Positions 9,411 to 48,406 of a stretch of DNA of 64,000 bases are shown here, piece by piece. This stretch comes from Candidatus Doudnabacteria bacterium (GTDB lineage Bacteria; Patescibacteriota; Doudnabacteria; UBA920), in NCBI GenBank assembly GCA_031291995.1, contig JARLHZ010000022.1:11330-75329 (forward strand), in the 5' to 3' direction. The translations under genes and the position numbers were made by a program. The notes beneath the pieces are model-generated. The model did not search any database. It was not told the origin of the DNA and saw only the letters and a program-made list of their open reading frames with translations. The first letter of the stretch is position 1; each line of letters opens with the position of its first letter.

Positions 9411-11693
9411 ATGGCGAAAACCGTTTATCAGTCGGGCACCACTAAAGTCGTTGGCGTTATTTTTTTTATTTTAGTCAGCTTGAGCCTGCTTGCGCCCCTG
9501 TGGGTGTTTCGGGATCTGTTGTTTCCCTACGTGACCAGTAAGGCGTTTTTTTTCAGGATTTGCCTGGAGCTGGCTTTGCCGTTTTATGTTTATTTGTTGA
9601 TTGTCCGTCCCGAACTGCGTCCCAAATGGCGGCGGCAGTATTTGAACTGGTTGATGATTGTGTTTTTAATTTTGAATCTGGTTTCCGCCCTTTGGGGTGA
9701 TGTCCCGACCAGAAGCCTCTGGGGAAATTTTGAACGCATGGGCGGCGTTTATTACATTGCCCATTTAACATTGTTATATTTTTACGCGATTGCCCTGGCC
9801 CAAATGGGCGGGTCTTATTTTAAACGTTTTTTGCAGGTATTTTTAGCCGGCGCCATGGTGGTAACCATAAACGGAATTTTCGGCAAGCTTGGCCTGCCGA
9901 CTCTGGTAATGGATCCGTCCCTGCCGGTCCGCGTGTCCAGCACTTTAGGGAACCCGATATATGTAGGCAGCTTTTTAATTGTCCCGATGTTTTTGGCCAT
10001 GTTTTTTGGCGGCCAGGCGGAAGAGGCCTGGCAGAAGTACGGTTACTATTTTTCCGCTTTCTTATTTTTTGTGGGCATAGTGCTAAGCGGCACCAGAGGA
10101 GCCATGGTCGGCCTGATTGCCGGGGTATTTTTAGCCGCCGTTGCTTATGTGATTTTTAACCCCAGCCGCAAATTGAGGCTTTACGGCGCGGGTGCAATCG
10201 GTATATTTGTCTTGCTTTGCGCTTTATTGTTCGCATTTAACAGCAAGCTGCCGCAGGGTGATTTTCAGCGTCTGTTCCACTTAAAAGACAGCAACACCTC
10301 CGCCCGCCTGGTGCAGTGGGGCGTGGCTCTAAAGGGCTATAAAGAGCATCCCTGGTTCGGGGTCGGACCGGAAAATTATTACATTATTTCCAACAAATAT
10401 TACAATCCGGCTATTTTTGTGTTTGACCGCAGCTGGTTCGATAAGCCTCACAATTACTGGATAGAGGTTTTGGTGACCGATGGCGTGTTTGCCTTTATCA
10501 CATATTTGGGGATTTTGTTGTTGCTTGCCTGGGCGCTTTATAAAGGATACCGCGGAGGGTTTTTAACCCTGACGGAATTCTCCCTGCTTTTGGCGGCTTT
10601 GCTGGCCTATCAAATCCAAAACCTAACCGTATTTGACACCGTGCCGGCCAGCATCGCCTTTTACTGCCTAATGGGTTTGGCCGGATTTATTTGGGACGCT
10701 CAATTATCATCGAACGGCGGAAACGGCAAGGCCGCTCCGACGCCAAAGTTTAAACCTGCCGACCCTATTCTGCCCGCGGCCGCTTTTGGCGCGGCTCTGG
10801 TAGTTGCCGCTTATTTGGTTTACTCCACCAATATCGTACCGATGGAAATTGCCAAAGCCGTTAACTATGGATACGCCTACAGCAGCGTAGATCCGGCAAA
10901 GGCCGATGAATATTTCCAGCGCGCGGTAACTTTGCCGTTTAATTTTGACAAAACCCAGGTCGCCCAAAAATACGCGGAATTTTCCATAAACCTGGAACGT
11001 TCAGCAACTACTGCGACCCAAGCTACGGCTTCTAAGGTTAGCGATGAATCCATAGCATTTTTAAACGAGGCCTTGGCAACGGAACCGCAATACCCGATTT
11101 TATGGCAGGAATTGGCCGAGGTCTATTTGTTCAAGAATATTCAAAACGGACGGCTGTCCAGTGTGGATCCCCATGCCGAGATTGATATTCAAAAGGCTAT
11201 TGCCCTGGCGCCCGGGCGGGAAGAGCCATTAATAACCGAGGCGCAAATTCAGGCTTCGGAAGGGAACCTGACGGGTTCGGAAAATATTTTGAAAAATTTG
11301 GAAGCGGAGTTTCCAACCGATAACACCATTCCGGCGCAACTGGCTACCATTAACCGCTTGGGCGGGAAAGCGGACGAGGCGGCGGCGAGCATGCAAAAAG
11401 CTTTGGACGCCGGTTACGCCGTAACTTCGGCCAGCGAAGCGCAGTGGCTGGTGGATTATTATGGAAGTAAAAAACAGTACCCGCAGGCCCTGGAGCTGGA
11501 GCTGAAAATCCAGGCCATAGATCCGAATAATCCGGACGTCTTGCTCGGCCTGGCTCAGCTGTACGCGCAAAACGGGCAAAATACCGAGGCTATTGCCGCG
11601 GCTCGCGCGGCGGAACAGAGCGACCCGACCAAACAAAAAGAAATAGAAGCGTTTATTACTTCCTTGGGCGGCGCGGCTACTACAACTAAATAA
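9411..11693 (+). CDS. O-antigen ligase/polymerase-like (Wzy_C) membrane protein fused to C-terminal TPR repeats
   Basis: 760 aa with about 10 TM helices. It carries a Wzy_C-like loop and a C-terminal 250 aa rich in TPR-like helices (ALAPGREEPL..., AIDPNNPDVLLGLAQLYAQNGQNTEAI). Confidence 0.7.
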   Translation: MAKTVYQSGTTKVVGVIFFILVSLSLLAPLWVFRDLLFPYVTSKAFFFRICLELALPFYVYLLIVRPELRPKWRRQYLNWLMIVFLILNLVSALWGDVPTRSLWGNFERMGGVYYIAHLTLLYFYAIALAQMGGSYFKRFLQVFLAGAMVVTINGIFGKLGLPTLVMDPSLPVRVSSTLGNPIYVGSFLIVPMFLAMFFGGQAEEAWQKYGYYFSAFLFFVGIVLSGTRGAMVGLIAGVFLAAVAYVIFNPSRKLRLYGAGAIGIFVLLCALLFAFNSKLPQGDFQRLFHLKDSNTSARLVQWGVALKGYKEHPWFGVGPENYYIISNKYYNPAIFVFDRSWFDKPHNYWIEVLVTDGVFAFITYLGILLLLAWALYKGYRGGFLTLTEFSLLLAALLAYQIQNLTVFDTVPASIAFYCLMGLAGFIWDAQLSSNGGNGKAAPTPKFKPADPILPAAAFGAALVVAAYLVYSTNIVPMEIAKAVNYGYAYSSVDPAKADEYFQRAVTLPFNFDKTQVAQKYAEFSINLERSATTATQATASKVSDESIAFLNEALATEPQYPILWQELAEVYLFKNIQNGRLSSVDPHAEIDIQKAIALAPGREEPLITEAQIQASEGNLTGSENILKNLEAEFPTDNTIPAQLATINRLGGKADEAAASMQKALDAGYAVTSASEAQWLVDYYGSKKQYPQALELELKIQAIDPNNPDVLLGLAQLYAQNGQNTEAIAAARAAEQSDPTKQKEIEAFITSLGGAATTTK

Positions 11694-11695
11694 GC

Positions 11696-11728
11696 AAAAG
11701 CGCCCCACTTAACGGGGCGCTTTTAAAA
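11696..11728. terminator. Bidirectional intrinsic terminator between convergent genes
   Basis: AAAAGCGCCCC-ACTTAAC-GGGGCGCTTTTAAAA has A-runs and T-runs on both sides. It overlaps the stop of the minus-strand GT4 gene. Confidence 0.6.
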
Positions 11729-12848
11729 TATGTTGATAAATTTTTTCGGTATCTTCCAGCATTTTTTGTTCATCGAATAGATTCGACCGCTCAAGCGAAT
11801 TTTGGGAAAGCTCCCGCATTTTTTCGGGATTATTAATCAGGAAACTAATGCCGCCGGCTAAAGCCCCGGGGTCTTCGGACTTTACCAGCATGCCGGCACC
11901 CCCCAAGGCTTCCGGGACACCACCGACATTTGTGGCTATAATCGGCAATCCGGCCTGTATGGCTTCCAAAATGGCATATGGAAAGCCTTCTTTTCGGGAA
12001 GGAAGGACAAAGATATCAAAAGCCTTTAAATACTTTGAGGCATCGCGGATCTCCCCTAAAAGCTTAATGTATTTTTCCAGACCATAATTCCTAATTCCTA
12101 ATTCCAAATTCTTTCTCTCCGCGCCATCACCCAATATTACTATCTGAAGTTTTGATATTATTTGTTCATCGATTTTTGCCGCGGCTTCCACCAAAACATC
12201 CAGCCCCTTGGTCTTATAAAAATTAGCCACGGTGCCAATAATAATTTTATCATCCGCGATTTTTAAACTCCGGCGCGCTTCCTGTTTATTCAGGAATTGA
12301 ATTTGTCCGATGCCGTTATGAATGGTGCTGATTTTATCCGGAGAAATTAATTTATTAGCCAGAGCCGATTGTTTGTCCGCCTCCGACACCGTAATAATAT
12401 AGTCGCGGTAATTGGAGGCCATTTTTTCCAGGGCCAGAAAAAAATTCCTTTTTGCCGCGCCCATTGGCTCGTTAAAAATAAAGCCGTGGGCGGTAAACAC
12501 CACTTTCGTTTTGCCGCCGAAAGCGGATCCTCTACTGGCGGAAAGCCCCACCGCGGCAAAGCTGCCAAGGACTCCGGCTTTGCTGGAATTTAAATGCACT
12601 ATATCCGGTTTTTCGCGTTCAATGAGCCGCCGGATTTCCCAGGCGGCCAAAAAATCGTTTAGCGGGCTAAGCGCGCGTTTTAAATGAGGTAAGTTGTATG
12701 TTGTAATTTGTAAGTTTCGGGCATCATCAAACAGCTGTCCGGCTTCGCTCCCGGCCGCAATACTGCCGCCAAAATGCCTGGCCAACCCCAAAACATACTT
12801 TTGCGCCCCCCCGCCATCGGCCTGGGTAATAATGTAAAGAATTTTCAT
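11709..12848 (-). CDS. Glycosyltransferase family 4 (GT-B, retaining)
   Basis: 379 aa. The N-terminal motif is 'MKILYIITQADGGGAQKY'. The C-terminal EX7E motif is 'RKEGFPYAILEAIQAGLPIIATNVGGVPE'. Confidence 0.75.
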   Translation of the reverse strand: MKILYIITQADGGGAQKYVLGLARHFGGSIAAGSEAGQLFDDARNLQITTYNLPHLKRALSPLNDFLAAWEIRRLIEREKPDIVHLNSSKAGVLGSFAAVGLSASRGSAFGGKTKVVFTAHGFIFNEPMGAAKRNFFLALEKMASNYRDYIITVSEADKQSALANKLISPDKISTIHNGIGQIQFLNKQEARRSLKIADDKIIIGTVANFYKTKGLDVLVEAAAKIDEQIISKLQIVILGDGAERKNLELGIRNYGLEKYIKLLGEIRDASKYLKAFDIFVLPSRKEGFPYAILEAIQAGLPIIATNVGGVPEALGGAGMLVKSEDPGALAGGISFLINNPEKMRELSQNSLERSNLFDEQKMLEDTEKIYQHILKAPR

Positions 12849-12873
12849 TACGCTAATTGTAGCGGAAAACCGA

Positions 12874-12902
12874 TTGATTTAAAAGGGGAATTATGATAAA
12901 TT
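12874..12902 (+). promoter_or_regulatory. Candidate promoter TTGATT-17-TAAATT upstream of gmd (would give a leaderless mRNA starting at the second ATG, 12909)
   Basis: Hexamers with 17-nt spacing in the divergent intergenic region. The -10 element ends 0 nt before the first ATG and 6 nt before the second. Confidence 0.3.
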
Positions 12903-36628: not shown

Positions 36629-36782
36629 CGTAGTAATCGCAAAGATACGAATCTTAATTAATATACAAAACCGTCAGTTGTAGGCAAGTCGGGATAGAAA
36701 AGATAACTTACAGTGTACGGCTTCGTATATTAATATTAATTTGTATATTCGCGATTACTCGTATATTCGCGATTACTACTAT

Positions 36783-37550
36783 ATGAAACAATCTACATCC
36801 TGGGGCAAAGTCGCCGGCTGGTATAACCAGCTTTTGCAGGAAGGCGAAGATACTTATCAGGAAAAAATAATAAAACCGAATTTATTAAGAATTCTCGCGC
36901 CAAAATCCGGCGAGGAAATTTTGGACGTGGGCTGCGGGCAGGGATTTTTCGCGCGCGAGATTGGCAAAGCTGGGGCAAAAGTTTTGGGGATAGATGTGGG
37001 CGGGGAATTAATCCGGCTGGCCAAAGCTCAAGCGGGCAAAAATGAAACATATTTGGTGCTGTCGGCCGAAAAAATGGCCGGGTTGGCGGACTCCCGATTT
37101 AACGCGGCCGTTTGCGTGCTGGCCCTGCAGAATATCAAGAATATGCAGGCGGCAATTTTGGAAATTTCCCGCGTGTTAAAACCCGGCGGCCGCGCAGTTT
37201 TGGTGTTAAACCATCCGGCGTTCCGTATTCCCGGCGCATCAACCTGGGGTTACGATGAAAAAACTAATATCCAATATCGCAATATCAACAAATATCTGTC
37301 CCAAATTTCCCAGGAAGTGGATATGACCCAGGGCGTGGCCGATCCGAAACGGAAGAAATTTACCTTGTCCTTCCATCACCCTTTACAGGTTTACTTTAAA
37401 GCGTTTGCCAAAGCCGGGCTGGCTGTTTCGCGCCTGGAAGAATGGGTGTCGCACAAAACCAGCGACAAAGGCCCGCGCAAACAGGCCGAAGACGCGGCCC
37501 GAAAAGAGATTCCGTTATTTATGTGCCTGGAATTGAAAAAAATTTATTAA
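36783..37550 (+). CDS. Class I SAM-dependent methyltransferase (Methyltransf_11/UbiE-like)
   Basis: The first ATG is at 36783 (the ORF-track TTG start at 36741 lies in a tandem repeat). 'ILDVGCGQGFFAREIGKAGAKVLGIDVG' is motif I. 'LKPGGRAVLV' is the post-motif II region. Confidence 0.65.
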   Translation: MKQSTSWGKVAGWYNQLLQEGEDTYQEKIIKPNLLRILAPKSGEEILDVGCGQGFFAREIGKAGAKVLGIDVGGELIRLAKAQAGKNETYLVLSAEKMAGLADSRFNAAVCVLALQNIKNMQAAILEISRVLKPGGRAVLVLNHPAFRIPGASTWGYDEKTNIQYRNINKYLSQISQEVDMTQGVADPKRKKFTLSFHHPLQVYFKAFAKAGLAVSRLEEWVSHKTSDKGPRKQAEDAARKEIPLFMCLELKKIY

Positions 37551-37571: not shown

Positions 37572-37925
37572 ATGGGTGAAAAAATCAAACCAAATATCGA
37601 CCGCGAATCTGAAGAGGATATCTCGTTGGGAAGCTACGGCAGATTTGAAAACATGCCGCCGCTGGCCGCTTTGTCGAATTTTCACGTTTTGCGGTATCAA
37701 GGCTGGGAATTTTTAAACAATCATCCGGATAAAGCCCAGGTTATCGCCAGAGTGGCTAACGCTACCGACCAAGAAATTTTTGCTTGGGCTCAGCTTACGT
37801 CAAAAGGAAAAGCACATGAAGATATAAATTTTTATGTCAATCTAGGAGAAGGATATAGAACAGAAGCTAATAAGATTTTAGGAGATATCACAGATATTAA
37901 AATTAAGCCGCCAACTGTTCAATAG
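37572..37925 (+). CDS. Hypothetical protein (no recognisable family)
   Basis: 117-aa ORF with an ATG start, co-oriented with its neighbours. Confidence 0.35.
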   Translation: MGEKIKPNIDRESEEDISLGSYGRFENMPPLAALSNFHVLRYQGWEFLNNHPDKAQVIARVANATDQEIFAWAQLTSKGKAHEDINFYVNLGEGYRTEANKILGDITDIKIKPPTVQ

Positions 37926-37965
37926 GTTTAATCCATTTTTTTGTCTTTACTTGTGGAAAAGTTTA

Positions 37966-37995
37966 AAAAAATGCCTCAAAATAAGGCATTTTTTA
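37966..37995. terminator. Intrinsic terminator (TGCCT-CAAAATA-AGGCA + T-run, A-run upstream)
   Basis: Hairpin flanked by A7 and T6. It looks bidirectional. Confidence 0.4.
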
Positions 37996-37998
37996 ATT

Positions 37999-38027
37999 TT
38001 GACGGGCGGTGAACGAAGGTTTACTAT
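37999..38027 (+). promoter_or_regulatory. Promoter TTGACG-17-TACTAT upstream of the secreted repeat protein gene
   Basis: Good -35 and -10 hexamers with 17-nt spacing. An AAGGAG Shine-Dalgarno sequence lies 8 nt before the ATG at 38084. Confidence 0.45.
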
Positions 38028-38083
38028 ATATTCATAATAATTAGGGGGAACGTCATAATCTTAGAACGTCAAAAGGAGAATGT

Positions 38084-38878
38084 ATGAAAAAAGTCTATTT
38101 GGCGTTGGTTGCGGCCGTTGTTGCCGGTTTTTTTGCGCCCGTAATATGTGCGGCCGCGCCGCCGGTTTACTCCGGCACGGTCACTAAAATTTACGGCAGC
38201 GGCGTGTATTTTATATCCACTAACGCCGCCACTTATTCGGCTGACTCTTCCGGCGCCCAACTTTTGCGCAAAAACGGCGCGATGATGGCACTCACTGAAA
38301 TTTTGGTCGGGGACAAGGTGCAGGTTACCGGCCAGATTTGGCATGATAACAGCATTAGCGCGGCAGTCATTAAAGATATGTCGCTTTACGCGCATACCGG
38401 GACTTTTAGCGGAAAAATTACCGGCATAAACACATCCAACAACAGTTTTACCCTCCAAACCAAGGCTTATGGGGATCAAACCATTAACACCACCAACCTG
38501 ACCGCGTATACCAAAAACGATTCCAGTGCCGGCTTGCCCGACATGCAGCTGGGAATGACGGCCAGCGTCAAAGGCCAGTGGGAGCGAAGCAATAAAAACG
38601 TAACCGCTTCTTCGGTCGCGGGCATATATAAGCCGGTCTCCATAGATCTAACCGGCAGTTTATTGTACCGGATTGGCACGTCGCTAACCGTGCTTGGCAA
38701 TGGCAATGTCCTGTACGGCGTGGATGCCGGCTCGGCTAAACTGGTCAGCAAAAATAACAAGACCATGTCTGTGGCCGAATTTAAGCAGGGCGACACCCTG
38801 CGCGTAACGGGCAAACATCTGTCCGGAATGGTCGCGGTCACGGCGACTCAGGTTAAAGATAATAGTGTGGTAAAATGA
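38084..38878 (+). CDS. Secreted protein with three ~75-aa DUF5666-like repeats
   Basis: Signal peptide (MKKVYLALVAAVVAGFFAPVICAAA). The internal repeats are 'GDKVQVTGQIWHDNS', 'GMTASVKGQWERSN' and 'GDTLRVTGKHLSGM'. Confidence 0.5.
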   Translation: MKKVYLALVAAVVAGFFAPVICAAAPPVYSGTVTKIYGSGVYFISTNAATYSADSSGAQLLRKNGAMMALTEILVGDKVQVTGQIWHDNSISAAVIKDMSLYAHTGTFSGKITGINTSNNSFTLQTKAYGDQTINTTNLTAYTKNDSSAGLPDMQLGMTASVKGQWERSNKNVTASSVAGIYKPVSIDLTGSLLYRIGTSLTVLGNGNVLYGVDAGSAKLVSKNNKTMSVAEFKQGDTLRVTGKHLSGMVAVTATQVKDNSVVK

Positions 38879-38895
38879 CAAAGCAACGAATATAG

Positions 38896-38940
38896 GTCGT
38901 ATAAGTCCTATACGACATATTTATCTTATTTTTATTAGCG
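38896..38940 (+). terminator. Terminator hairpin (GGTCGTATA-AGTCC-TATACGAC) + T-rich tail
   Basis: Inverted repeat directly after the stop, followed by ttatcttatttttatt. Confidence 0.45.
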
Positions 38941-39080
38941 ACGTAGAGCGAGTCCGGCCATTTATGGCCGCGCGAGCCGAGGAGCTAATACAGGTTCAAT
39001 ACCGCGCGGCTCGCCGCGCAATTGTAGCGATGTCTTTGCAGTAATACCCCGCTGCTTGCGGCGGGGAACCTTTATTTTTT

Positions 39081-41129
39081 ATGTCCGACCAACCCCAACC
39101 CACAAAATATAATATAGCAGAACTCCGCAAAATTCACCCCAAAATAGGGCTGAAGTGGGAACAGGAAGAAGACGAGCGGTTAAAAAAGTTGTACACCGAA
39201 AACCGAACCGCAAGAGCCGGTGATTTTGACGAGTTCGTGCTTGAGTTAACCGAGGACTTTGGCCGCGCGGCCGGCGGACTCAAGGCCCGGCTGGCCATGC
39301 ATTTTACCGACGTCCCGGGCTGGGATTACAGCCGTGACGAGTTCCGGCGCCAGGAAATGGACAAAAAGGCCGCTGCGGCCATCCCGGAAAGCCGCAATGA
39401 TTTTTTGCGCGATGAATATAAAAAATATTCGGAAAATAAGAAAGAAACTTATACCGGTTTTCTCAAACGCTTATCTCAGTCTTTGGGAGGCGTGGAAGGG
39501 ACTTTTGTGAAGCATCGTTTGGAGCAGTTGGTCGGCAAGCTGGAGAAATATCGGCGGGACGACGTGAATCCTTTTGCCAGAGCGCATAAACCGGACCCGG
39601 AGCCCGAAATTCCTAAATATTCTTTTGCCGAAAATCCCGAGGCTATGGAAACGTTAAAGATAATGGGCCGGACGGCGGAAAATTTGTTTTTAACCGGCGA
39701 GGCTGGCACGGGCAAGTCCACATTGCTGCAATATTTTCGTCTTACGACCCAAAAAAATGTCGTGGTTCTGGCTCCTACCGGCGTGGCAGCTATTAACGTG
39801 GGCGGGCAGACCATTCATTCGTTTTGCGCCTTTGGGCCGGATATTACTTTAAGCAAAGTTAAAAAGCTCGGGTCGGGCAGCGGTAAATTCCAGCTGCTGC
39901 AAAAATTGCAGATTATCATTATCGATGAAATCTCCATGGTACGGGCGGATTTATTGGACTGCGTAGATAAATTTTTGCGCATAAACGGTCCGGCCAAAGA
40001 CGAGCCGTTTGGCGGCATCCAAATGGTATTTATAGGCGACCTTTACCAGCTGCCCCCGGTGGACCGAGATTTTATTTCCGGAGACGGGCTGTTTGGTAAT
40101 TATCAATCCCCATATTTTTTTGATTCCCGGGCGTTTAAAGGCGCCAAGTTCCACCATATCCAGTTAAAGCAAATGTACCGGCAAAAGGAGCAGGTGTTTA
40201 TAGACGTGTTAAACGCGGTGCGCAATAACGCGGCCACTCAGGAACATTTGCAGGTTTTAAACCGGCGCGCGGACGTTGCCGGCGCCAAATTTACTTTTGA
40301 GAAATTCGCCATATATTTAACGCCGCACAACCATCAGGCGCGCAAAGTTAATAATTATTTTTTGGAAAGAATAGCCGCGCCGGTAAAAATTTATGAAGGG
40401 CTCGTTAGCGGTAGTTTTGAAGACCGCGAACCGCCAACGGACGTTAGCCTCCAGGTAAAAGTTGGCGCCCAGGTTATGATGCTCAACAACGACCAGCGCA
40501 AACGCTGGGTCAACGGGACAATGGGCAAAGTGGTGGGGATACGGGGGAACGAGGACAATAGCGATAACAATAACTATAACCGAGATGTAGTGCAGGCCCG
40601 TGGCCTGCCCGACGATAATTATAGTGATAATGTTGATGATATTGAGAATTCCCGCTCTCCCCTTGTGAGGGGAGATGCCCCGGAGGGGCAGAGAGGTTGG
40701 TCCTACGCTGTTGATGACGATGAGGACTCTTCTTCATCCGACTCCATCCTCATAGAACTTGAAACCGGCGAAACCGTGTATGTACAGCCCCACACCTGGG
40801 AAATGTTCCAGTTTACCCTGGACAAGCACACGCAAAAAGTGGACAGCAAGACCACCGGCACGTTTACCCAGTATCCGTTTAAGCTGGCCTGGGCGGTAAC
40901 CATCCATAAGGCTCAGGGCAAAACTTTTGACAAAGTCTATGTGGACCTGTCCACCGGCACCTTTGCCCACGGCCAGCTTTATGTTGCCCTGTCCCGCTGC
41001 CGCACGCTGGAAGGTTTGTATTTAAAGCGGCCGATTACCCAAAAAGATATTATTTTGGACAACCGCATAGTGGAATTTTTGCACGGCTTAAACCCGACAG
41101 AATCGTATTATTCGACCGTCGATGAATAA
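39081..41129 (+). CDS. PIF1/RecD2-family SF1B DNA helicase with ~190-aa N-terminal domain of unknown function and a ~75-aa acidic low-complexity insertion
   Basis: Walker A is 'LTGEAGTGKSTLL'. Walker B is 'IIIDEISMV'. 'MVFIGDLYQLPPV' is a Pif1 signature. The C-terminal motif is 'WAVTIHKAQGKTFDKVYVDL'. The insertion 'NEDNSDNNNYNRDVVQARGLPDDNYSDNVDDIENSRS...DDDEDSSSSDS' lies at about 40540-40760. Confidence 0.75.
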   Translation: MSDQPQPTKYNIAELRKIHPKIGLKWEQEEDERLKKLYTENRTARAGDFDEFVLELTEDFGRAAGGLKARLAMHFTDVPGWDYSRDEFRRQEMDKKAAAAIPESRNDFLRDEYKKYSENKKETYTGFLKRLSQSLGGVEGTFVKHRLEQLVGKLEKYRRDDVNPFARAHKPDPEPEIPKYSFAENPEAMETLKIMGRTAENLFLTGEAGTGKSTLLQYFRLTTQKNVVVLAPTGVAAINVGGQTIHSFCAFGPDITLSKVKKLGSGSGKFQLLQKLQIIIIDEISMVRADLLDCVDKFLRINGPAKDEPFGGIQMVFIGDLYQLPPVDRDFISGDGLFGNYQSPYFFDSRAFKGAKFHHIQLKQMYRQKEQVFIDVLNAVRNNAATQEHLQVLNRRADVAGAKFTFEKFAIYLTPHNHQARKVNNYFLERIAAPVKIYEGLVSGSFEDREPPTDVSLQVKVGAQVMMLNNDQRKRWVNGTMGKVVGIRGNEDNSDNNNYNRDVVQARGLPDDNYSDNVDDIENSRSPLVRGDAPEGQRGWSYAVDDDEDSSSSDSILIELETGETVYVQPHTWEMFQFTLDKHTQKVDSKTTGTFTQYPFKLAWAVTIHKAQGKTFDKVYVDLSTGTFAHGQLYVALSRCRTLEGLYLKRPITQKDIILDNRIVEFLHGLNPTESYYSTVDE

Positions 41130-41170
41130 ATATTAAGGCTGAAATAGTTATATAATACAATCAATCGAAG

Positions 41171-41200
41171 CCCGCGAGACTCATATGGTCTTGCGGGTTT
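41171..41200 (+). terminator. Intrinsic terminator (CCCGCGAGAC-TCATATG-GTCTTGCGGG + TTTT)
   Basis: 10-bp stem with one G-T wobble pair, followed by TTTTATTTT. Confidence 0.5.
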
Positions 41201-41204
41201 TATT

Positions 41205-41897
41205 TTGATTACTAATTTTAATAAAAAAATAACCTTGCCCATAAAAAATCTCCACAAAATTGAACAGCCCAGGGAAAAATTGCAAAAGTACGGCGCGGAA
41301 AGGCTTTCCGATGCCGAGCTGTTTGCCATTCTGCTGCGGACCGGGCCAAAGGGGAGCGGGGTTTTGGAACTGTCAAAAAAAATTCTTAGGCAGTTGCCGG
41401 GAGTAAGGCTTGCCAATGCCGGGTATAAGGAATTGCGGCAGATTTACGGTCTTGGCCCGGCCAAGGCCTGTGAAATTGTTGCCTGCTTTGAACTTGGCCG
41501 GAGAATGCTTAAGGACAAAAAGGCATCGCTGATTATTTCACCGCGCGAAGTCTGGGAGCAATGCCGGGACATTTGGGCCAGTAAAAAAGAGCATTTTGTG
41601 GTGTTCTTTTTGGACACGCAAAACCAGGAAATAAAACGCGAACTTATAAGCATTGGCACGCTTAACGCCAGCTTAATCCACCCCCGCGAAGTCTTTGAGC
41701 CCGCCATAAAATATCTGGCCTCGCACATCATCCTCTGCCACAACCACCCCAGCGGCAGTCTGGAACCTTCCGACGAAGACCTTGCCGTCACCAAGCGCCT
41801 CACCGACTCCGGCAAACTGTTAGGAATAGAAGTTATTGATCACGTGATTATTACTAGTAGGGGATATATGAGCTTTAAAGAGAAGAACCTTCTTTAG
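41205..41897 (+). CDS. radC: RadC-family JAB/MPN domain protein
   Basis: 230 aa. 'PREKLQKYGAERLSDAELFAILLRTG' is the RadC N-terminal HhH region. 'HNHPSGSLEPSDEDLAVTKRL' is the JAMM motif. The only in-frame start is a TTG. Confidence 0.8.
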   Translation: MITNFNKKITLPIKNLHKIEQPREKLQKYGAERLSDAELFAILLRTGPKGSGVLELSKKILRQLPGVRLANAGYKELRQIYGLGPAKACEIVACFELGRRMLKDKKASLIISPREVWEQCRDIWASKKEHFVVFFLDTQNQEIKRELISIGTLNASLIHPREVFEPAIKYLASHIILCHNHPSGSLEPSDEDLAVTKRLTDSGKLLGIEVIDHVIITSRGYMSFKEKNLL

Positions 41898-41992
41898 TGT
41901 CATTCCTGCGAAGGCAGGAATCTTGCATTTATTCACTTGACCTAATGTTCAAATGTACGCTATTATGTACATATAAATATAATCCCCAATAT

Positions 41993-42355
41993 ATGAACTC
42001 AAAAACAACGCTATCTATAACCGAGGCCAGAAAAAGGATTTTTGAAATTTGCGATGCCGTCCAGCAGCCGGACAGTTATTATACTTTAACCGAAAACGGC
42101 AAGCCCAAGGCCGTTATTCTTTCCTATGCAGAATATGAATCGATAATCGAAACTATAGACGTAATGCAGGAAATGCCGGAACTCGGCAGGGAATTAAAGG
42201 AAACCCGGGAAGCAGTTAAAAGAGGCAAGCATAAAAATTGGACCACGCTAGAAGAATTATTGGCCAAACAAGGTTACGTTTTGGCTGAGAAAGCAAAAAA
42301 ACCATATGGCTTTTCGTCTAAAACTGCATCCAAGAGCCGAAAAACAACTAAATAG
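41993..42355 (+). CDS. Phd/YefM-family antitoxin with C-terminal extension
   Basis: The first ATG is at 41993 (MNSKTTLSITEARKRIFEICDAV...KAVILSYAEYESIIETIDV), a Phd/YefM fold signature. It overlaps the downstream toxin by about 50 nt. Confidence 0.55.
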   Translation: MNSKTTLSITEARKRIFEICDAVQQPDSYYTLTENGKPKAVILSYAEYESIIETIDVMQEMPELGRELKETREAVKRGKHKNWTTLEELLAKQGYVLAEKAKKPYGFSSKTASKSRKTTK

Positions 42356-42563
42356 CACCCCCAGTCCATACAATGAAAGAATTAAAATTACCCTTACAGC
42401 TATTGCCAATAATCCTTGGATTGGAAAAAAGCTTAGGGGCGAATACAATGGGTCTTATACAGTTAGGGTTTGGCCATATAGGATTATTTACGATATTTAC
42501 AAACACGAGCTTTTAGTAACGATAATTAAAATCAAACACCGAGGCCAAGGGGTCTACTCCTAA
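42306..42563 (+). CDS. RelE/ParE-family toxin
   Basis: 85 aa. 'LKLHPRAEKQL...NNPWIGKKLRGEYNGSYTVRVWPYRIIYDIYKHELLVTIIKIKHR' is the canonical RelE/StbE pattern. Confidence 0.65.
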   Translation: MAFRLKLHPRAEKQLNSTPSPYNERIKITLTAIANNPWIGKKLRGEYNGSYTVRVWPYRIIYDIYKHELLVTIIKIKHRGQGVYS

Positions 42564-42567
42564 ATTT

Positions 42568-43215
42568 ATGGGTTTATTAGGGAAAATTTTCGGGGGTCAA
42601 AAGGACGCGCAAGGGATTGCCACAGATGTGGCTATGCTTATTGCCCAAGAGTCTTTTCATAAATTCCGTGAACCTGAGTTTAGGAAGCAGCTGAATTTTA
42701 GCAATTTGGACCAGGAAGAACAGGATAGGATTTTTAACGAGTTGGTTATTACCGGCCTGTGTCTGGTTTATTTGACTTTGGAACGCGGCGAGCTTGAAAA
42801 CGCGCACGAAAAATCTCGCGAGACTTTTAGACAAATTAAAAACCAGTTGGCTGGCGGCTACGCGCGGACGTTGGCGGAAGGGGGAGTGGAAAAGGAATTT
42901 ACAGATTTGTGGTATCAGCTCATAGCCATGCGCTGCGAGGAATATCGCCAGGATTTTAAGGAACACAGGGACTTGTTTGACGACCCTTGGGTGAATTATT
43001 GGATCCATGTTTGTGCCATCGGCGGCTCAGACCACATTTGCCGCGGAAAAGGAGAACAAGTAGAAAAATTGTTGCCGGATTTAACCAGATGGTGCGGTAA
43101 AATTTATATTGAAAGCATGCGCAGTCTCGCGGGACAGCTTCACGCTACTTTAAGCGAAGGCGGCAAGTCGGTGAAAGTCGATGTCAAAGACGACGGGAGC
43201 TTAGATGTCAAGTAA
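42568..43215 (+). CDS. Hypothetical cytoplasmic protein (215 aa, no recognisable family)
   Basis: ATG start 4 nt after the relE stop. No TM helices or known motifs were seen. Confidence 0.4.
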   Translation: MGLLGKIFGGQKDAQGIATDVAMLIAQESFHKFREPEFRKQLNFSNLDQEEQDRIFNELVITGLCLVYLTLERGELENAHEKSRETFRQIKNQLAGGYARTLAEGGVEKEFTDLWYQLIAMRCEEYRQDFKEHRDLFDDPWVNYWIHVCAIGGSDHICRGKGEQVEKLLPDLTRWCGKIYIESMRSLAGQLHATLSEGGKSVKVDVKDDGSLDVK

Positions 43216-43504
43216 AATTATTAATTTTTAACTTATGCCAGGGCAATTTTACGACGACTGCGAAATCTGCCGCGCCATGAAGGCGGCCGAGGAGCGGGGC
43301 GTGCCGCTGTCGGAAAAGGAACTGTTTGCCGCTTTTGAAGCCCAAAAGAAAACCGGCATTGGAATGTTCGGTACCGGAGAAGATTTGGAAAAAATGGAAT
43401 AGCCTCTCAACCCGCCAATTGAAACGCCCTGATTTTGCTATGGTACGCGTTTAAAAAAGGGTGTAATATAAGGCTAAGCGAGGCTTATCTTTAATATAAA
43501 ATTT

Positions 43505-43801
43505 ATGCCAACAATAGAAGAGTTTGATAGCAAGCAAACAGATGTTGAGGGAAGGGCCGATGATTTGCGTCGGCAAATTCCCAAAGAAGGCGAAATTCCA
43601 AAGGATGCCAAGCCTTTTAGTCCGGCCAAGCGTTGGGAGCTTGAAGCGGAGTTGGAAGAAATGCGCCATCCCCATCGCGAACCTGAAAGGAGAAACCCTT
43701 TTTCGCCAAAGAATGCCGAAGACGCGTCTAATTCTAAACCGGAGCCGGCGGGAGGCAAAAAGGGAATTATGACCGAAGTCCGCGGCGAAGAAAAAATATA
43801 A
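43505..43801 (+). CDS. Hypothetical highly charged (K/E/R-rich) small protein
   Basis: 98 aa with an ATG start. A purine-rich region generates ORFs in several frames. This + strand frame is the one co-oriented with its neighbours. Confidence 0.3.
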   Translation: MPTIEEFDSKQTDVEGRADDLRRQIPKEGEIPKDAKPFSPAKRWELEAELEEMRHPHREPERRNPFSPKNAEDASNSKPEPAGGKKGIMTEVRGEEKI

Positions 43802-43875
43802 TTGTAACAGATTATTAAAGTTTGTACTAAAGTAAAAAATTTTATGAGTGAAGAATCGGACATGATGGATGGGGA

Positions 43876-44151
43876 GTGGGATGCTCATGGCGAGGCGCAT
43901 TTTGGCGACATCAATCTATAGAGGCATTAACCGAACTTGATACGGAGCTTATTAAAGCCGGGCCGCATGGGAAAAATTATTCTTTAAAGCCAAAAATCGC
44001 GAGGGCAATTGCCAATATGACTGACGATAATTTAGTTACTTGGATAAATTTAATGGCGCCGGATCACAACCCAAAAGTCATTGAATTTTATACCAAAAGA
44101 GCCATGGAAATTTACAACAGCTGTTGTTCCTATGTAAAAAGCCTGGAATAA
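43876..44151 (+). CDS. Hypothetical small protein (start uncertain: GTG at 43876 or ATG about 44006)
   Basis: Open frame with a C-terminal 'MTDDNLVTWINLMAPDHNPKVIEFYTKRAMEIYNSCCSYV'. The coding call is weak. Confidence 0.25.
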   Translation: MGCSWRGAFWRHQSIEALTELDTELIKAGPHGKNYSLKPKIARAIANMTDDNLVTWINLMAPDHNPKVIEFYTKRAMEIYNSCCSYVKSLE

Positions 44152-44186
44152 ATTTAAAATATTTTATTTAACGCCGCTTTTAATTT

Positions 44187-44420
44187 ATGAACAAAGTTAC
44201 AAGTATTGAATCGGGAAAGAGGTTCCAAACTCAAGAAAATAGAATTTTGGAACTTCGCAAGCAAATCGAGGAAACCAAGCGTAGGGTTGAAGACCTGGAT
44301 ACTATTTTAGGTAATTCTACAGATGTCGGCAAGAATGAAGAAATTAATCAAGAAGAAACCGCGTTAAGGTTAAAACTTCGCATATATTTAGAGGAGCTTG
44401 AAAGCCTTGAAAAAGATTAA
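44187..44420 (+). CDS. Hypothetical coiled-coil small protein
   Basis: 77 aa, heptad-like and E/K/L-rich (RILELRKQIEETKRRVEDLDTIL...LKLRIYLEELESLEKD). Confidence 0.35.
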   Translation: MNKVTSIESGKRFQTQENRILELRKQIEETKRRVEDLDTILGNSTDVGKNEEINQEETALRLKLRIYLEELESLEKD

Positions 44421-44424
44421 TTTT

Positions 44425-44715
44425 ATGGGGTACACCGAAGATTTTATAAAAGCCCAGGAAACTCCGAGCAGTTCGCCCCACGGATACCTCCAGGGCAGTT
44501 TGCCTTTGGCGGCAAAATATAACCCCAAAGGCCTGAGAAAATTTACCCTGCTAACCTACACCCTTTTCCCCCTCGCCATAATCTCCATAGCCCTTGCCCT
44601 GGAATCCACCCAGCTCTGGCTCAAGCTCCTCTCTATCGTCGTCTTCCTCCTTTCCCTATGGGGCATTTACAAATTCAGGAAAACTAATTTCATCAAACCT
44701 CCCCAAACCCCCTAA
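44425..44715 (+). CDS. Hypothetical small membrane protein (2 TM helices)
   Basis: The first ATG is at 44425 (MGYTEDFIKAQ...). There are two hydrophobic helices (LLTYTLFPLAIISIALAL, LLSIVVFLLSLWGIY). A terminator follows. Confidence 0.35.
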   Translation: MGYTEDFIKAQETPSSSPHGYLQGSLPLAAKYNPKGLRKFTLLTYTLFPLAIISIALALESTQLWLKLLSIVVFLLSLWGIYKFRKTNFIKPPQTP

Positions 44716-44742
44716 AAGCCCCGCCCAAGCGGGGCTTTTGCT
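44716..44742 (+). terminator. Intrinsic terminator (AGCCCCGC-CCAA-GCGGGGCT + TTT)
   Basis: 8-bp GC-rich stem plus T-run after the membrane-protein ORF. Confidence 0.5.
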
Positions 44743-44861
44743 ATGGCAAAGTCTTGAAAATAAGTATAAAATATACTAAAGTAAGATTATTTAAACTTAT
44801 CCACTTTACAATAGGTGAACGATTGTATACGATTAAGACACAGAGAATTATCAGCTAATCT

Positions 44862-45842
44862 ATGAACAAAAAAATCAAAACCAATAAGAAAAAAATATCC
44901 AAATCCAAGAAAAATGTTTCTTACAATATAAAAAGCAAGGGGCACAGCCATCTTAAAGAGCAGGGAGCGTTGCTTTATACTCCAACAACAATATCTAAAC
45001 CGGTAGAAAGCAAAATTCTAACTCAAATTAAAGAGCAGCCTTATTTTAGCAAGGGTAATTTTGTTTTGTACAACGACGACTGTTTAAAAATATTGGAACA
45101 GTTACCTGAGAATTCAATTGACATGATTTTTGCTGACCCGCCATATAATCTTTCCAACGGAGGTTTTACCGTTCATGCAGGAAGGCGAGTAAGCGTAAAT
45201 AAGGGTGCGTGGGATTCCAGTAAGGGTTTTGCAGATGATTTTCAATTTCAATTAGCGTGGATAAAAGCCTGTAAAAGAGTTCTTAAGCCAAATGGAACAA
45301 TTTGGATTAGCGGCACCTATCATTCTATATATCAATGCGGCTATGCGTTACAATTAGAAGGCTATAAAATTTTAAACGATATTTCTTGGTTTAAACCCAA
45401 TGCTTCACCTAATTTAAGCGGCAGGTATTTTACGGCCAGCCACGAAACTTTAATTTGGGCGCGAAAAGACGAACAGGCCAAACACACTTTTAATTATAAG
45501 CATATGAAGCTAACAAGTTGGCCGGGTGACTTTTTTAAAAACGAGGGCAAACAAATGAGGAGCGTTTGGCATATTCCGGAAAACGAAGATGTTTGGGTAG
45601 AAGGCACCCCAAAATCCGCAGAAAAAATTTTTGGCAAACATCCAACCCAAAAACCCCTGTCATTATTAAACAGGATTGTGTTAGCCTCAACAAACCCAGG
45701 AGAAATAGTTTTAGATCCTTTTGCCGGGAGTTCAACCACAGGCATTGCCGCTGCTATAAGTGGTAGAAAATTTATTGGTATTGATATGGAAAAGGACTAT
45801 CTTGAATTATCGAAAAAAAGGTTTTTAGAATTAAATAAATAA
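44862..45842 (+). CDS. Beta-class DNA methyltransferase (DPPY motif; N6-adenine or N4-cytosine) with Lys-rich ~60-aa N-terminal extension
   Basis: 'IDMIFADPPYNL' is motif IV, which precedes 'VLDPFAGSSTTGIAA' (motif I). This permuted order defines the beta class. The N-terminus is 'MNKKIKTNKKKISKSKKNVSYNIKSK'. Confidence 0.8.
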   Translation: MNKKIKTNKKKISKSKKNVSYNIKSKGHSHLKEQGALLYTPTTISKPVESKILTQIKEQPYFSKGNFVLYNDDCLKILEQLPENSIDMIFADPPYNLSNGGFTVHAGRRVSVNKGAWDSSKGFADDFQFQLAWIKACKRVLKPNGTIWISGTYHSIYQCGYALQLEGYKILNDISWFKPNASPNLSGRYFTASHETLIWARKDEQAKHTFNYKHMKLTSWPGDFFKNEGKQMRSVWHIPENEDVWVEGTPKSAEKIFGKHPTQKPLSLLNRIVLASTNPGEIVLDPFAGSSTTGIAAAISGRKFIGIDMEKDYLELSKKRFLELNK

Positions 45843-45854
45843 TTAAACAATGCT

Positions 45855-46379
45855 ATGATAGAAAAAGGTAAGGGCGGTGCCAACACTCAAACAGGATTAA
45901 AATTTGAAAAAAAGATTGACATTTTAAGCTTGCTATCTAAGACTAAAGGTTACACAATTCGAGACAAGAGTTTAATATTGTTTAATGGAAAAGAAGTTGC
46001 CAGAAGCTATAGAAAAAATGCATTGTATAAATATTTAGAGGAGAAAGGGGTTGATTACAAAAGCATAATATCAAAAAAATGGCTCCCTGATGAAGCGCTT
46101 TATGTAATTGCAAACAACACCTTGTTTATTATTGAAATCAAATTCCAAAAAGTTGGAGGCTCGGTTGATGAAAAATTACAGACTTGTGACTTTAAAAAAA
46201 AGGTATACAAAAAACTTATGGCCCCATTAAATATCGATGTTGAATACATATATATTTTAAGCAATTGGTTTCAGCATCCAAGGTATAAGGACACTTTAGA
46301 ATATGTAATTGATATGGGTTGTCAGTATTATTTTGAATTTTTACCACTAAAAAAAATTGGTTTACCGCTTCCAGAATAA
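45855..46379 (+). CDS. Candidate cognate type II restriction endonuclease (PD-(D/E)xK-like) of the adjacent methyltransferase
   Basis: 174 aa. 'LPDEALYVIANNTLFIIEIKFQK' gives a PD...(E)IK arrangement. It lies 12 nt downstream of the MTase on the same strand. There is no detectable similarity to anything I can name. Confidence 0.4.
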   Translation: MIEKGKGGANTQTGLKFEKKIDILSLLSKTKGYTIRDKSLILFNGKEVARSYRKNALYKYLEEKGVDYKSIISKKWLPDEALYVIANNTLFIIEIKFQKVGGSVDEKLQTCDFKKKVYKKLMAPLNIDVEYIYILSNWFQHPRYKDTLEYVIDMGCQYYFEFLPLKKIGLPLPE

Positions 46380-46482
46380 AAGAAAGCCATATTTAACAAT
46401 AGTATTGTTCGTTCTTGTTATAGAGGACAGACTACAAAAATGGGTATATGCCCATTTTTTTGTTTTGTGGTATGGTAATAGT

Positions 46483-48108
46483 ATGGATTTTAATTTATTG
46501 AATTTACTTAAGGAAAAACGGCGGGAGATTGCTGGGAGGGAGGGGAGGGAGCTTTTTCGGGTGTTTCAGAATAAAACATTAGAGGCTACAGTTGAGGCTA
46601 TGCCTAAGGGTCTTAGGGATTTGGAAAACATTAAGGGTTGGGGAAAAAAGAAAATTGCGATGTATGGCCGGGAGATTTTGGAAGTTTTAAATGGCACACC
46701 GGTTAATGATAATTCCTTATTTAGTTTTAATAGTAAAAGCACAACTCCTGCCCAGACTCCGGCGGTTAAATCGGCAACTCCTAAACAGCCGGCAGGTCCG
46801 AGGGTTTTGAGCGTGCAGGAATTGCTGGCGTATTTAAATGACCGATTTGTGCAGCTGGGGACTTTGCAGGTGCGAGGAGAAATTACGGAAATTAGCAAGC
46901 GGGATAATTATTGTTTTTTTACCATCAAAGATTCCCAAAGTCAGGATCATCTGGTCAGCTGCTTTATGGGCCGCATAGCTATGAATGCCTACGACTACTT
47001 GTTGGACGAAGGAATGGAAGTGGTTATAAGCGCCGTACCGTCATTGTATAAAACCGGACGCTTTAGTTTAACCGTCAGCAAAATTGAGGCTTTTGGCGAA
47101 GGCGCGTTAAAAAAAGCTTTTGAGGCTTTAAAAAATAAACTCCAGGATAAAGGTTTTTTTGACGTGGAGCGCAAACGGCCGATGCCGGAGTACATAAACA
47201 AAATCGGACTCATTACGTCGGAAAGCGGCGCCGCGGTGCGCGACTTTTTAAAAAATTTGGGGAATTACGGTTTCCAAATCACCCTTTGCGACGTGCGGGT
47301 GGAAGGGGATTACGCCGAGGAGTCTATTATAAACGCCATTGGCAAACTTAATAAAGCCCGACCGGATTTGGACGTATTGGTCCTGCTGCGCGGCGGCGGC
47401 AGTCTGGAAAATTTTAAAGCCTTTAATTCGGAAGGCGTGGCCGAGGCCATAGTCACATCGCGCCTTCCCATCCTTACGGGAATTGGCCATGAGCGGGATA
47501 TTAGCATTGCGGATTTGGCCGCGGATCTGTCGCTTTCCACGCCCACGGCCGTGGCCGCGTATATTAAAAACCAGAGGATTGGTTTGATCGAACATGTCGG
47601 CAGAATTGCGGATGACTTAGCAGCAGCTGCCGAAAATATTTTATCGGCACAAAAAGAAAAACTGGCAGACGCGCAAATGGGGCTGAAGAACTCCTATTAC
47701 GAAATTTTACATAACCAAAAGGTTAAGTTGGGCCGGCTGGCCGCGCAAATGCAGTATGGTTTGGATAAAGTTTTTAACCGGTTCCGGGAACTGGAGAAAG
47801 CCTTTATTCACAGCTTTTATCATCAGCGCTCGCTTATTCAGGCCCACTTACACAGAACCGGCCAAATTACGCGAGAAAGTTGCATTATACTGGCAAAGAA
47901 ATTACAATTCCATAAGGGGCGGCTGGATGTGGCCGAAGCCGCGCTAATGCCGCTAAGCCCCGAGGCCGTGCTAAAAAAAGGCTACAGCATTGTTTATAAA
48001 TCGGGCAAAGTCTTAAAAAATGCCGCCGATGTTCAGCCCGGCGATATGTTAAATTTAAAATTATATAAAGGAAATATTTTAACGTCTGCTGAGGAAATAA
48101 ATAATTAA
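46483..48108 (+). CDS. xseA: Exodeoxyribonuclease VII large subunit with ~100-aa N-terminal HhH-like extension
   Basis: The first ATG is at 46483 (MDFNLLNLLKEKRREIAGREGRELFRV...LENIKGWGKKKI). The OB-fold is 'LSVQELLAYLNDRFVQLGTLQVRGEITEIS'. The catalytic core is 'IGLITSESGAAVRDFLKNL' and 'LLRGGGSLENF'. Confidence 0.8.
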   Translation: MDFNLLNLLKEKRREIAGREGRELFRVFQNKTLEATVEAMPKGLRDLENIKGWGKKKIAMYGREILEVLNGTPVNDNSLFSFNSKSTTPAQTPAVKSATPKQPAGPRVLSVQELLAYLNDRFVQLGTLQVRGEITEISKRDNYCFFTIKDSQSQDHLVSCFMGRIAMNAYDYLLDEGMEVVISAVPSLYKTGRFSLTVSKIEAFGEGALKKAFEALKNKLQDKGFFDVERKRPMPEYINKIGLITSESGAAVRDFLKNLGNYGFQITLCDVRVEGDYAEESIINAIGKLNKARPDLDVLVLLRGGGSLENFKAFNSEGVAEAIVTSRLPILTGIGHERDISIADLAADLSLSTPTAVAAYIKNQRIGLIEHVGRIADDLAAAAENILSAQKEKLADAQMGLKNSYYEILHNQKVKLGRLAAQMQYGLDKVFNRFRELEKAFIHSFYHQRSLIQAHLHRTGQITRESCIILAKKLQFHKGRLDVAEAALMPLSPEAVLKKGYSIVYKSGKVLKNAADVQPGDMLNLKLYKGNILTSAEEINN

Positions 48109-48175
48109 GCCGTAGCGTGCCCATTTATGGGCGTTCTAGAAATCGCCGATGAATCGGCACGCTACACATATAACT

Positions 48176-48406
48176 ATGCCAACCGAAAAAAATAAACTTC
48201 AAACCGCGCTTAAACAGCTTGAAACCATTGTCGACGATCTAAGCAATAAAGACGTAGACGTCGAGTCCGGGCTGGAAAAGTTCAGGAGCGGCGTGGACTT
48301 GATTAAGTACTGCCGCACGGAATTAAACAAAGCCGAAAACGAATTCCAAAAACTCAAAACGGAATTGGAAACCGAAGAAACCTTACAGGACGAAAATCCG
48401 GTGTAG
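48176..48406 (+). CDS. xseB: Exodeoxyribonuclease VII small subunit
   Basis: Start at the second ATG (MPTEKNKLQTALKQLETIVDDLSNKDVDVESGLEKFRSGVDLIKYCRTELNKAE), the classical XseB helix pattern. The upstream ATG at 48149 lies inside a palindromic element. Confidence 0.7.
   Translation: MPTEKNKLQTALKQLETIVDDLSNKDVDVESGLEKFRSGVDLIKYCRTELNKAENEFQKLKTELETEETLQDENPV

Follow-up and report, generated by a model that had tools for sequence, protein, structure and literature searches.

Does a run of small, unannotated genes lying between a toxin-antitoxin (TA) pair and a restriction-modification (R-M) pair make up a new anti-phage system? The question is raised by positions 37572-46379 of a 64-kb stretch of contig JARLHZ010000022.1 from a Candidatus Doudnabacteria bacterium (the window; all coordinates are in its numbering, and its mean GC content is ~0.46). 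A preliminary description, made from the sequence, had seen a defence island here, with an undescribed module formed by a 215-amino acid (aa) protein, a coiled-coil protein and a membrane protein. We find that the segment is largely ordinary and is not a new multi-gene anti-phage system: the term "defence hotspot" is supported by the data, and "undescribed module" is not. All the open reading frames (ORFs) named in that description are present on the + strand, as is every gene in 37572-48406 (Table 1).

We think it probable that the segment is a mosaic of three parts with separate histories. Positions 37572-42563 would be Doudnabacteria backbone, comprising a small protein (g117) tied to an upstream class I methyltransferase, a secreted DUF5666 protein, a Pif1 helicase, a full-length RadC and a Phd/RelE pair. 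Positions 42568-44715 would be a strain-variable tail of six same-strand small genes behind RelE that arrived independently–p215, the CxxC mini-protein p55, the charged p98, a dead paralogue of g117 (p91), the orphan p77 and p96 with its two transmembrane helices–and that end in an intrinsic terminator. Positions 44862-46379 would be a separate, low-GC, mobile type II R-M unit, and the site downstream of RadC-Phd-RelE would be a recurrent landing place for R-M systems in related genomes, which would be why the region resembles a defence island. The window is base-for-base identical to three independent assemblies from 39049 onward (L001-L003; L numbers are our labels for fetched loci). Among close relatives only 42568-46379 is absent or replaced and 37572-42563 is kept. 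The right-hand part is accessory, as had been proposed, and strain-variable.

The six tail genes do not travel together and form no unit. Among the loci that we fetched, none besides the source genome has more than two of them, none conserves the set, and their neighbours vary; the 215-aa, coiled-coil (p77) and membrane (p96) proteins that had been put forward as a module never co-occur elsewhere, each having a distribution of its own. That these three, perhaps with the other small genes, are one undescribed multi-gene anti-phage system beside the R-M and TA pairs is highly improbable, both for this lack of conservation and for the state of the individual members: one is a pseudogene (p91), one has no homologue (p77), a third (p96) is shortened to its conserved N-terminal part in three of the seven homologues seen (P0145, P0150 and a 46-aa fragment in L106), and p215 homologues elsewhere adjoin PolX, NUDIX, YbaK-type tRNA_edit and amidase genes. 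The idea draws its appeal from the layout, with six closely spaced genes on one strand between the TA and R-M pairs ending in one terminator, from the lack of a curated family for any of the six, from conserved polar residues in p215 that would suggest catalysis or ligand binding, and from the presence of p215 and p55 together in L013. Small unannotated genes beside R-M and TA genes resembled a new defence cassette here, but the comparative data show them travelling apart.

The tail genes number six and not five, the 55-aa gene having been missed earlier. None of their proteins gave an above-noise match to any Pfam, PADLOC, PHROG or NCBIfam model, so the statement that they lack a recognisable family holds; equally, none is recognised by the defence models of PADLOC. 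They are not all orphans, because an exhaustive phmmer search of the six concatenated proteins against 1.84 billion representative sequences left only the 77-aa ORF without a homologue. A codon-usage model trained on 34 long genes of the window (training mean 0.169 per codon, standard deviation 0.063) scored the 117-, 55-, 98- and 77-aa ORFs like real genes (+0.16 to +0.26 per codon), the 91-aa ORF weakly (+0.066) and the 96-aa ORF neutrally (~0), and gave negative scores to overlapping minus-strand ORFs. The small ORFs share an A/T-rich AATTT-ATG start context that is common among the window's long genes. It is quite unlikely that some of them (the 77-, 96- and 91-aa ORFs) are chance ORFs in decaying intergenic DNA. 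The 77-aa ORF, which has no homologue, has a codon score among the highest (+0.26 per codon, the training mean being 0.17); the low scores of the 96- and 91-aa ORFs would fit such an origin, as would the frameshift in the latter, which one gene caller skipped, but both have homologues aligned over their full length, and the shared start context extends to them all.

The gene described earlier as coding for about 90 aa is not intact. Judged from its homologues P0137 and P0141, which are 105 aa long and begin MSEESEMM..G.W...FG(D/E)MD, it is a frameshift-broken paralogue of g117 and probably dead. The corresponding N-terminus is encoded at 43844-43909 in another frame, with one base missing near 43910; the frame-repaired protein aligns end to end with the homologues, and the frameshift is identical in L001-L003. 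The g117 gene, whose homologues include P0134, P0136 and P0144, lies directly behind the class I methyltransferase gene at 36741-37550. Profile-profile comparison of g117 with the p91 family (probability 98%, E = 2.9e-13) makes them distant paralogues, and in L021 a p91-type gene occupies the g117 position, directly behind the orthologue of that methyltransferase.

p77 matches only itself among the 1.84 billion representatives and is a true orphan. p98 has five homologues, 41-64% identical to it; in L020 a homologue lies upstream of RadC, between RadC and a 65-aa ORF that looks HicA-like by eye. p96 has full-length homologues in P0133 (52%) and P0138 (45%), and a homologue in L022 stands among different neighbours. 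GC content is 0.31-0.37 over the 77-aa ORF and the R-M pair and 0.50 in the 96-aa gene between them; this pattern over 44187-46379 suggests at least two separate acquisitions.

The largest tail protein, p215, belongs to a sizeable family; its own sequence is identical to that of a hypothetical protein from a Candidatus Doudnabacteria metagenome-assembled genome. We found 473 homologues (E < 1e-3), with named sources in bacteria of the candidate phyla radiation (CPR), Deltaproteobacteria, Thermodesulfobacteriota and Acidoferrales, and none of the 60 members checked had a family match. Residues E51, D53, R54, N57, E58, R122, E125, Y126, H156 and R159 are invariant, and the motifs EQDRIFNELV, W..L..R.EEY and HICRG are strongly conserved. 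AlphaFold2 gave a confident all-alpha model (predicted local distance difference test, pLDDT, 88; predicted template-modelling score, pTM, 0.86), for which neither the PDB nor viral models offered a convincing match. In L004 it adjoins RelE and a Zeta toxin; in L007 and L015 the neighbours are NUDIX and PolX genes, joined in L007 by Bro-N; L017 has Cdd1 and YbaK-type tRNA_edit beside it, and L010 an amidase gene. p215 is thus present in L004; it is absent from L018 and from all 80 loci of the RadC scan described below, and it has no relatives in IMG/VR viral contigs, a phage collection or a plasmid collection. We consider it very unlikely that p215 is a novel enzyme acting by itself in immunity or DNA metabolism and co-transcribed in Doudnabacteria with Phd-RelE as the third component of the operon. 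The family is nevertheless a well-defined target of unassigned function with a confident structural model.

Homologues of p55 include P0132 (78% identical), P0135 and others, and there are 107 relatives in metagenome contigs but none in IMG/VR viral contigs; in our alignment (A5) the D-x-C-x-I-C motif is invariant. No neighbour is constant, and no neighbour family occurs in more than 7 of 80 p55 loci. The gene directly follows RelE in L018, is placed elsewhere in L023 and L013, and is fused to a 219-aa family in L166. We rejected a p215-p55 pair as a general rule, since the two are together in only one of the 80 p55 loci fetched (L114 is the same contig as L013), and a comparison of the p215 family with the 219-aa family found alongside p55 led us to reject homology as well (hhalign probability 0.3%). 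Several families of small CPR genes form a loose network and turn up repeatedly in variable regions, each time in another combination: p55, a family of 114-139 aa, one of 203-215 aa that starts with MGLTVHY, and a Cys-rich one of 219-252 aa. Examples are found at L166 2302-3237, L102 16123-17827, L163 392-1554, L109 4434-5216 and L013 3001-4139.

The left-hand part of the segment, 37572-42563, is lineage backbone and not island, because RadC-Phd-RelE is conserved, Pif1 lies near RadC in relatives and the helicase matches cellular Pif1. RadC, Phd, RelE and the DUF5666 protein are 53-86% identical and syntenic in L004, L018, L019 and L020: RadC orthologues in relatives are 70-85% identical, RelE orthologues 78-86% (L004 and L018) and DUF5666 orthologues 53% in L004 and, in a further relative, 48% (L026). 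A scan for RadC in species-representative genomes gave 80 loci, 66 of them with enough downstream sequence. In 18 of these 66 CPR loci Phd lies downstream of RadC at a distance of at most 1.6 kb, and in 13 RelE does, so RadC-Phd-RelE is a conserved CPR arrangement, an anchor triad; and since the RadC-Phd association spans RadC proteins with 54-84% identity to that of the window, the three-gene arrangement may be functional rather than accidental. Loci with RadC-Phd(-RelE) include L024, L025, L030, L033, L034, L038, L044, L049 and L051, as well as L059-L061, L066, L071, L072 and L102. Orthologues of the 36741-37550 methyltransferase lie near RadC in L024, L026, L099 and L109. In four relatives a 68-99-aa family with the motif NFR.QIWFD..PDK.LLG directly follows RadC (L018 1257-1499, L025 10834-11040, L026 10691-10912 and L102 11139-11438); it is missing from the window, where the gap between RadC and Phd is only 95 nucleotides (nt).

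The identities given to these backbone genes were correct, and it is their assignment to island cargo that is not supported; the DUF5666 and 117-aa genes are likewise conserved backbone. RadC has both the UPF0758_N and the JAB domain. Phd and RelE have the expected family domains (PF02604 and PF05016) and are arranged as a type II TA pair, with the antitoxin gene first, a 50-nt overlap between the two genes and a promoter-like site at 41937-41966 (10 of 12 positions matching) upstream of Phd. The helicase is of the PIF1 type (PF05970). Its N-terminal region of ~190 aa is conserved in relatives but has no Pfam match, and after the 2B domain comes an acidic insertion of ~77 aa, rich in Asp, Ser and Asn. 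Its orthologues adjoin RadC in shuffled order in L026 (63%), L059 (55%), L106 (71%) and L025, accompanied in L026 by the orthologue of the 36741-37550 methyltransferase and a DUF5666 gene. The L026 orthologue (10922-12901) is split into ORFs of 548 and 109 aa exactly at the site of the acidic insertion, and this stretch of Pif1 appears unstable. Against helicase-based defence systems (PDC-S68, type IV RecD, Nhi and AbiO) the protein gave matches to the core only, for example over profile positions 553-745 of 1221, and the PADLOC scan found no nuclease domain or partner genes of such systems; the best helicase matches are to cellular Pif1.

RadC-like genes and small ORFs are typical of the leading regions of mobile elements, and one could see in the segment the remnant of a prophage or integrative element whose small genes are anti-defence or leading-region genes. 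The helicase does match a phage Dda-like family (phrog_325, 6.6e-86), and the phage-associated domains ORF6N, Bro-N and T5orf172 occur in related loci, but the helicase is closest to cellular bacterial Pif1, and RadC, with its UPF0758_N domain, is the full-length chromosomal form and keeps its synteny in relatives. Searches for attachment sites and repeats, tRNA/Rfam scans and Pfam scans found no tRNA, integrase or flanking repeat bounding the segment; the only tRNAs found in the window are at 59.6 kb, and the Pfam scans made gave no integrase or recombinase match for any nearby ORF. There are no p215 or p55 relatives in IMG/VR viral contigs, the phage collection has no match to p215 or p174 (the nuclease of the R-M pair), the plasmid collection has no match to a p215 homologue, and no small protein has a significant PHROG match. 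We give a prophage origin almost no credence.

The claim of a defence island stands in part. Its left half is conserved backbone and no integrase, tRNA or repeat borders it, but behind RadC-Phd-RelE there is a hotspot rich in R-M systems. Type I R-M systems lie downstream of the triad in L024 and L030; L004 has a Zeta toxin, T5orf172, a type I system and an OLD-type nuclease in this position; and L018 has two methyltransferases and an ORF with an HNH-like C-terminus (by eye), followed by NERD and Fic genes. The same site holds a large P-loop ORF in L102, DUF2075-like helicase by eye only, and a methyltransferase-like ORF with an SPPY motif in L023. In the 6 kb downstream of the triad, 7 of 70 ORFs match PADLOC methyltransferase models, compared with 2 of 117 upstream of it; crude as this test is, its direction is consistent. 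In the segment itself PADLOC recognises the methyltransferase alone, apart from partial helicase-core matches, and both a TA pair and an R-M pair are present. The conserved triad with a variable, R-M-rich site behind it can guide searches for accessory genes in the genomes of CPR bacteria.

The occupant of this site in the window, 44862-46379, is a mobile type II R-M system, and the earlier reading of it as a type II R-M pair adjoining the TA pair is borne out by the domains of one protein and the fold of the other. The first gene supplies an N6-adenine methyltransferase (motif FADPPYNL in its translation) of the DpnA/LlaDCHIB (DpnIIB) type. The protein shares 51.5% identity with the second methyltransferase of pSRQ700, 50.6% with that of a staphylococcal plasmid and 52% with a frameshifted counterpart at the drg/NgoAXI locus of Neisseria gonorrhoeae. 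Its beta class is confirmed (PF01555, 5e-58), but the Lys-rich N-tail ascribed to it is not conserved in a 70%-identical homologue in L103, so the start of the gene is uncertain. The second gene supplies the nuclease. The predicted fold of p174 matches PD-(D/E)xK nucleases and D79, E94 and K96 are invariant, in agreement with the proposal that it is such an enzyme. No PADLOC, PHROG, NCBIfam or PDB sequence match was found for the family, and the Pfam match of p174 to PDDEXK_11 is weak (1.7e-4) and sub-threshold, as it is in 33 of 33 members; p174 thus falls outside recognised restriction-enzyme family models.

The two genes move as a unit. A p174-family gene adjoins a methyltransferase gene in every case examined (the window, L103, N. 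gonorrhoeae L011, a Leuconostoc plasmid, L012, and L052), and these genomes are unrelated: in L103 the same pair (70% and 80% identical) stands behind rpoC with a 144-aa gene intervening, in L012 the methyltransferase is Dam-like, and in L052 a Dam-like methyltransferase is joined by an OLD-like ATPase. At L052 3878-7214 the ATPase and a second ORF (265 and 330 aa, OLD/Gabija-like by reading) lie between the Dam-like methyltransferase and the p174 homologue. In the window the pair is bounded by the terminator at 44718-44739 upstream and the hairpin at 46436-46459 downstream, has promoter-like sites of its own at 44754-44833 upstream of the methyltransferase gene, and has a GC content of 0.37 and 0.31 against the window mean of ~0.46. 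Its target is probably GATC, because the closest annotated methyltransferases belong to GATC-targeting systems of the DpnII type. On this view the methyltransferase would methylate the GATC sites of the cell itself, and incoming DNA would be cut by p174 wherever its GATC is unmethylated.

The p174 family is very common in CPR, with 3481 homologues; among the best 120 of these, which are 69-82% identical and ~173 aa long, the named sources are several CPR phyla. As the family has no PADLOC match and only sub-threshold Pfam matches, model-based tools may score its systems as orphan methyltransferases and so undercount R-M systems in CPR. In N. gonorrhoeae (NZ_CP119140.1; L011 2303-3535) a DpnIIB-like methyltransferase gene and a 46%-identical p174 homologue lie downstream of drg, both frameshifted; the passages of PMC4269198 and PMC6789123 that we searched mention only a methyltransferase there.

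Several points weigh against our reading of the segment. In the tail, p215 and p55 are found together in one further genome (L013), and both lie against RelE with no terminator in between, so a functional link between them and the TA operon may exist, and the p215 neighbourhoods inspected are those of ~10 of the 473 homologues. The statistic for the hotspot comes from crude ORF calls and small numbers. The GATC specificity derives from homologues only; the ratio of observed to expected GATC in the window is a modest 0.70, and in the same word-avoidance analysis TCGA and CTAG are more depleted. Lastly, p174 is unusually conserved for a restriction enzyme (69-82% across CPR phyla in the best 120 of 3481 homologues) and is more conserved than its methyltransferase, a pattern that either a housekeeping role or rampant transfer could explain.

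On such grounds p174 might be no classical restriction enzyme but a nuclease conserved in CPR whose activity is coupled to GATC methylation, such as a MutH-like nickase for strand discrimination or an enzyme for scavenging DNA, with the methyltransferase effectively a Dam-type housekeeping enzyme. Its identity across CPR phyla (~70%) exceeds that of RadC (~55-60%), family members are paired with Dam-like methyltransferases in L052 and Leuconostoc, and p174 adjoins xseAB in the window, although that adjacency is not conserved and a terminator-like hairpin lies between. A preprint proposes that in CPR, which cannot make nucleotides, R-M has a role in metabolic compensation beyond genome protection (10.64898/2026.07.13.738296). 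We hold this alternative reading of p174 to be unlikely. The two genes relocate together from one chromosomal site to another, have a low GC content and are found on Lactobacillales plasmids, beside an IS30 transposase gene in the one inspected, all signs of a selfish mobile R-M module; and at the drg locus of N. gonorrhoeae, where GATC methylation would be lethal (PMC4269198), frameshifts have struck both. A mobile R-M system thus remains our interpretation of the pair.

Downstream of p174 come xseA (46357-48108) and then xseB, as identified with Pfam. XseA has an N-terminal HRDC domain (PF00570, 6e-16) before the OB fold. Its true start is probably the ATG at 46483 rather than the listed TTG at 46357, because a start at the TTG reads through the terminator-like hairpin at 46436-46459.

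Table 1. Genes and transcription signals of the segment, in window coordinates.
Feature	Position	Strand	Remarks
g117, 117-aa small protein	37572..37925	+	without curated family; codon score +0.185
Secreted DUF5666 protein	38084..38878	+	PF18914, 7.8e-10
Pif1-family helicase, superfamily 1B (SF1B)	39081..41129	+	PF05970, 2.4e-29
Intrinsic-terminator-like hairpin	41167..41201	+	15-pair stem then T-rich tail, after helicase gene
RadC, full-length	41235..41897	+	TTG start; PF04002 (JAB) 4.5e-42; PF20582 (UPF0758_N) 1e-22
Phd/YefM antitoxin	41993..42355	+	PF02604, 1.1e-14
RelE/ParE toxin	42306..42563	+	PF05016, 3.4e-10
p215, 215-aa all-alpha cytoplasmic protein	42568..43215	+	family without curated model; starts 4 nt after RelE stop
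p55, 55-aa CxxC protein	43235..43402	+	invariant D-x-C-x-I-C motif; no curated family
p98, highly charged 98-aa protein	43505..43801	+	probably disordered; codon score +0.157
p91, frameshifted g117 paralogue	43844..44151	+	ATG 43844; 91-aa ORF 43876-44151
p77, charged 77-aa protein	44187..44420	+	probably coiled-coil; codon score +0.261; GC 0.36
p96, 96-aa protein with two hydrophobic helices	44425..44715	+	no curated family; codon score neutral
Intrinsic terminator closing small-gene run	44718..44739	+	GCCCCGC-CCAA-GCGGGGC-TTTT, read from sequence
Beta-class N6-adenine DNA methyltransferase	44862..45842	+	DPPY motif; PF01555 5e-58; PADLOC MTase_II 4e-95; GC 0.37
p174, 174-aa PD-(D/E)xK endonuclease	45855..46379	+	invariant D79, E94, K96; GC 0.31
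Terminator-like hairpin	46436-46459		after p174 gene

The cryptic prophages of E. coli carry RadC-like genes beside TA pairs, in the sets YeeS-YeeU-YeeV and YkfG-YafW-YkfI. That arrangement shares with the window a JAB-domain RadC gene immediately upstream of a TA pair in a plastic region; by comparison, the window's RadC is full-length and chromosomal with UPF0758_N, its TA pair is Phd/RelE (type II) and not CbtA/CbeA, and its arrangement is vertically conserved across CPR lineages and not prophage-borne. The window's helicase has the same core, including the 2B/SH3 domain, as the solved bacterial Pif1 structures (PDB 8bns, 1.2e-132; Bacteroides Pif1, PDB 5fhd, 7e-84), to which it adds the ~190-aa N-terminal region and the ~77-aa acidic insertion. 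Genomic islands with R-M systems have already been described in Patescibacteria (PMC12455944). Those islands and the window have in common a horizontally acquired R-M system in a streamlined CPR genome, with content that varies between relatives, and L025 and L102 carry 'nzgw' isolate names like the genome in that study; in the window the landing site is defined, downstream of RadC-Phd-RelE, and about half of the interval that had been flagged is backbone.

The closest counterparts of the R-M unit are DpnII, LlaDCHI and NgoAXI. LlaDCHI is related to DpnII and has GmATC methylation (PMC4132740), and the gonococcal gene at the GATC locus is described as DpnIIB-like or truncated (PMC4269198, PMC6789123). 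The window has one methyltransferase, of predicted specificity, without a Dam-like DpnM partner. Its nuclease is of a different family from the pSRQ700 restriction enzyme, at 174 aa compared with 304 aa, lacking a PADLOC match and with PDDEXK_11 below threshold, and a weak local match around D...E.K (E = 0.004) is what connects the two. The methyltransferase is 51-52% identical to the second (DpnA/DpnIIB-like, beta-class) methyltransferase of pSRQ700 and of the gonococcal locus, and the window shares with these systems a nuclease gene immediately downstream and the character of a mobile, low-GC pair.

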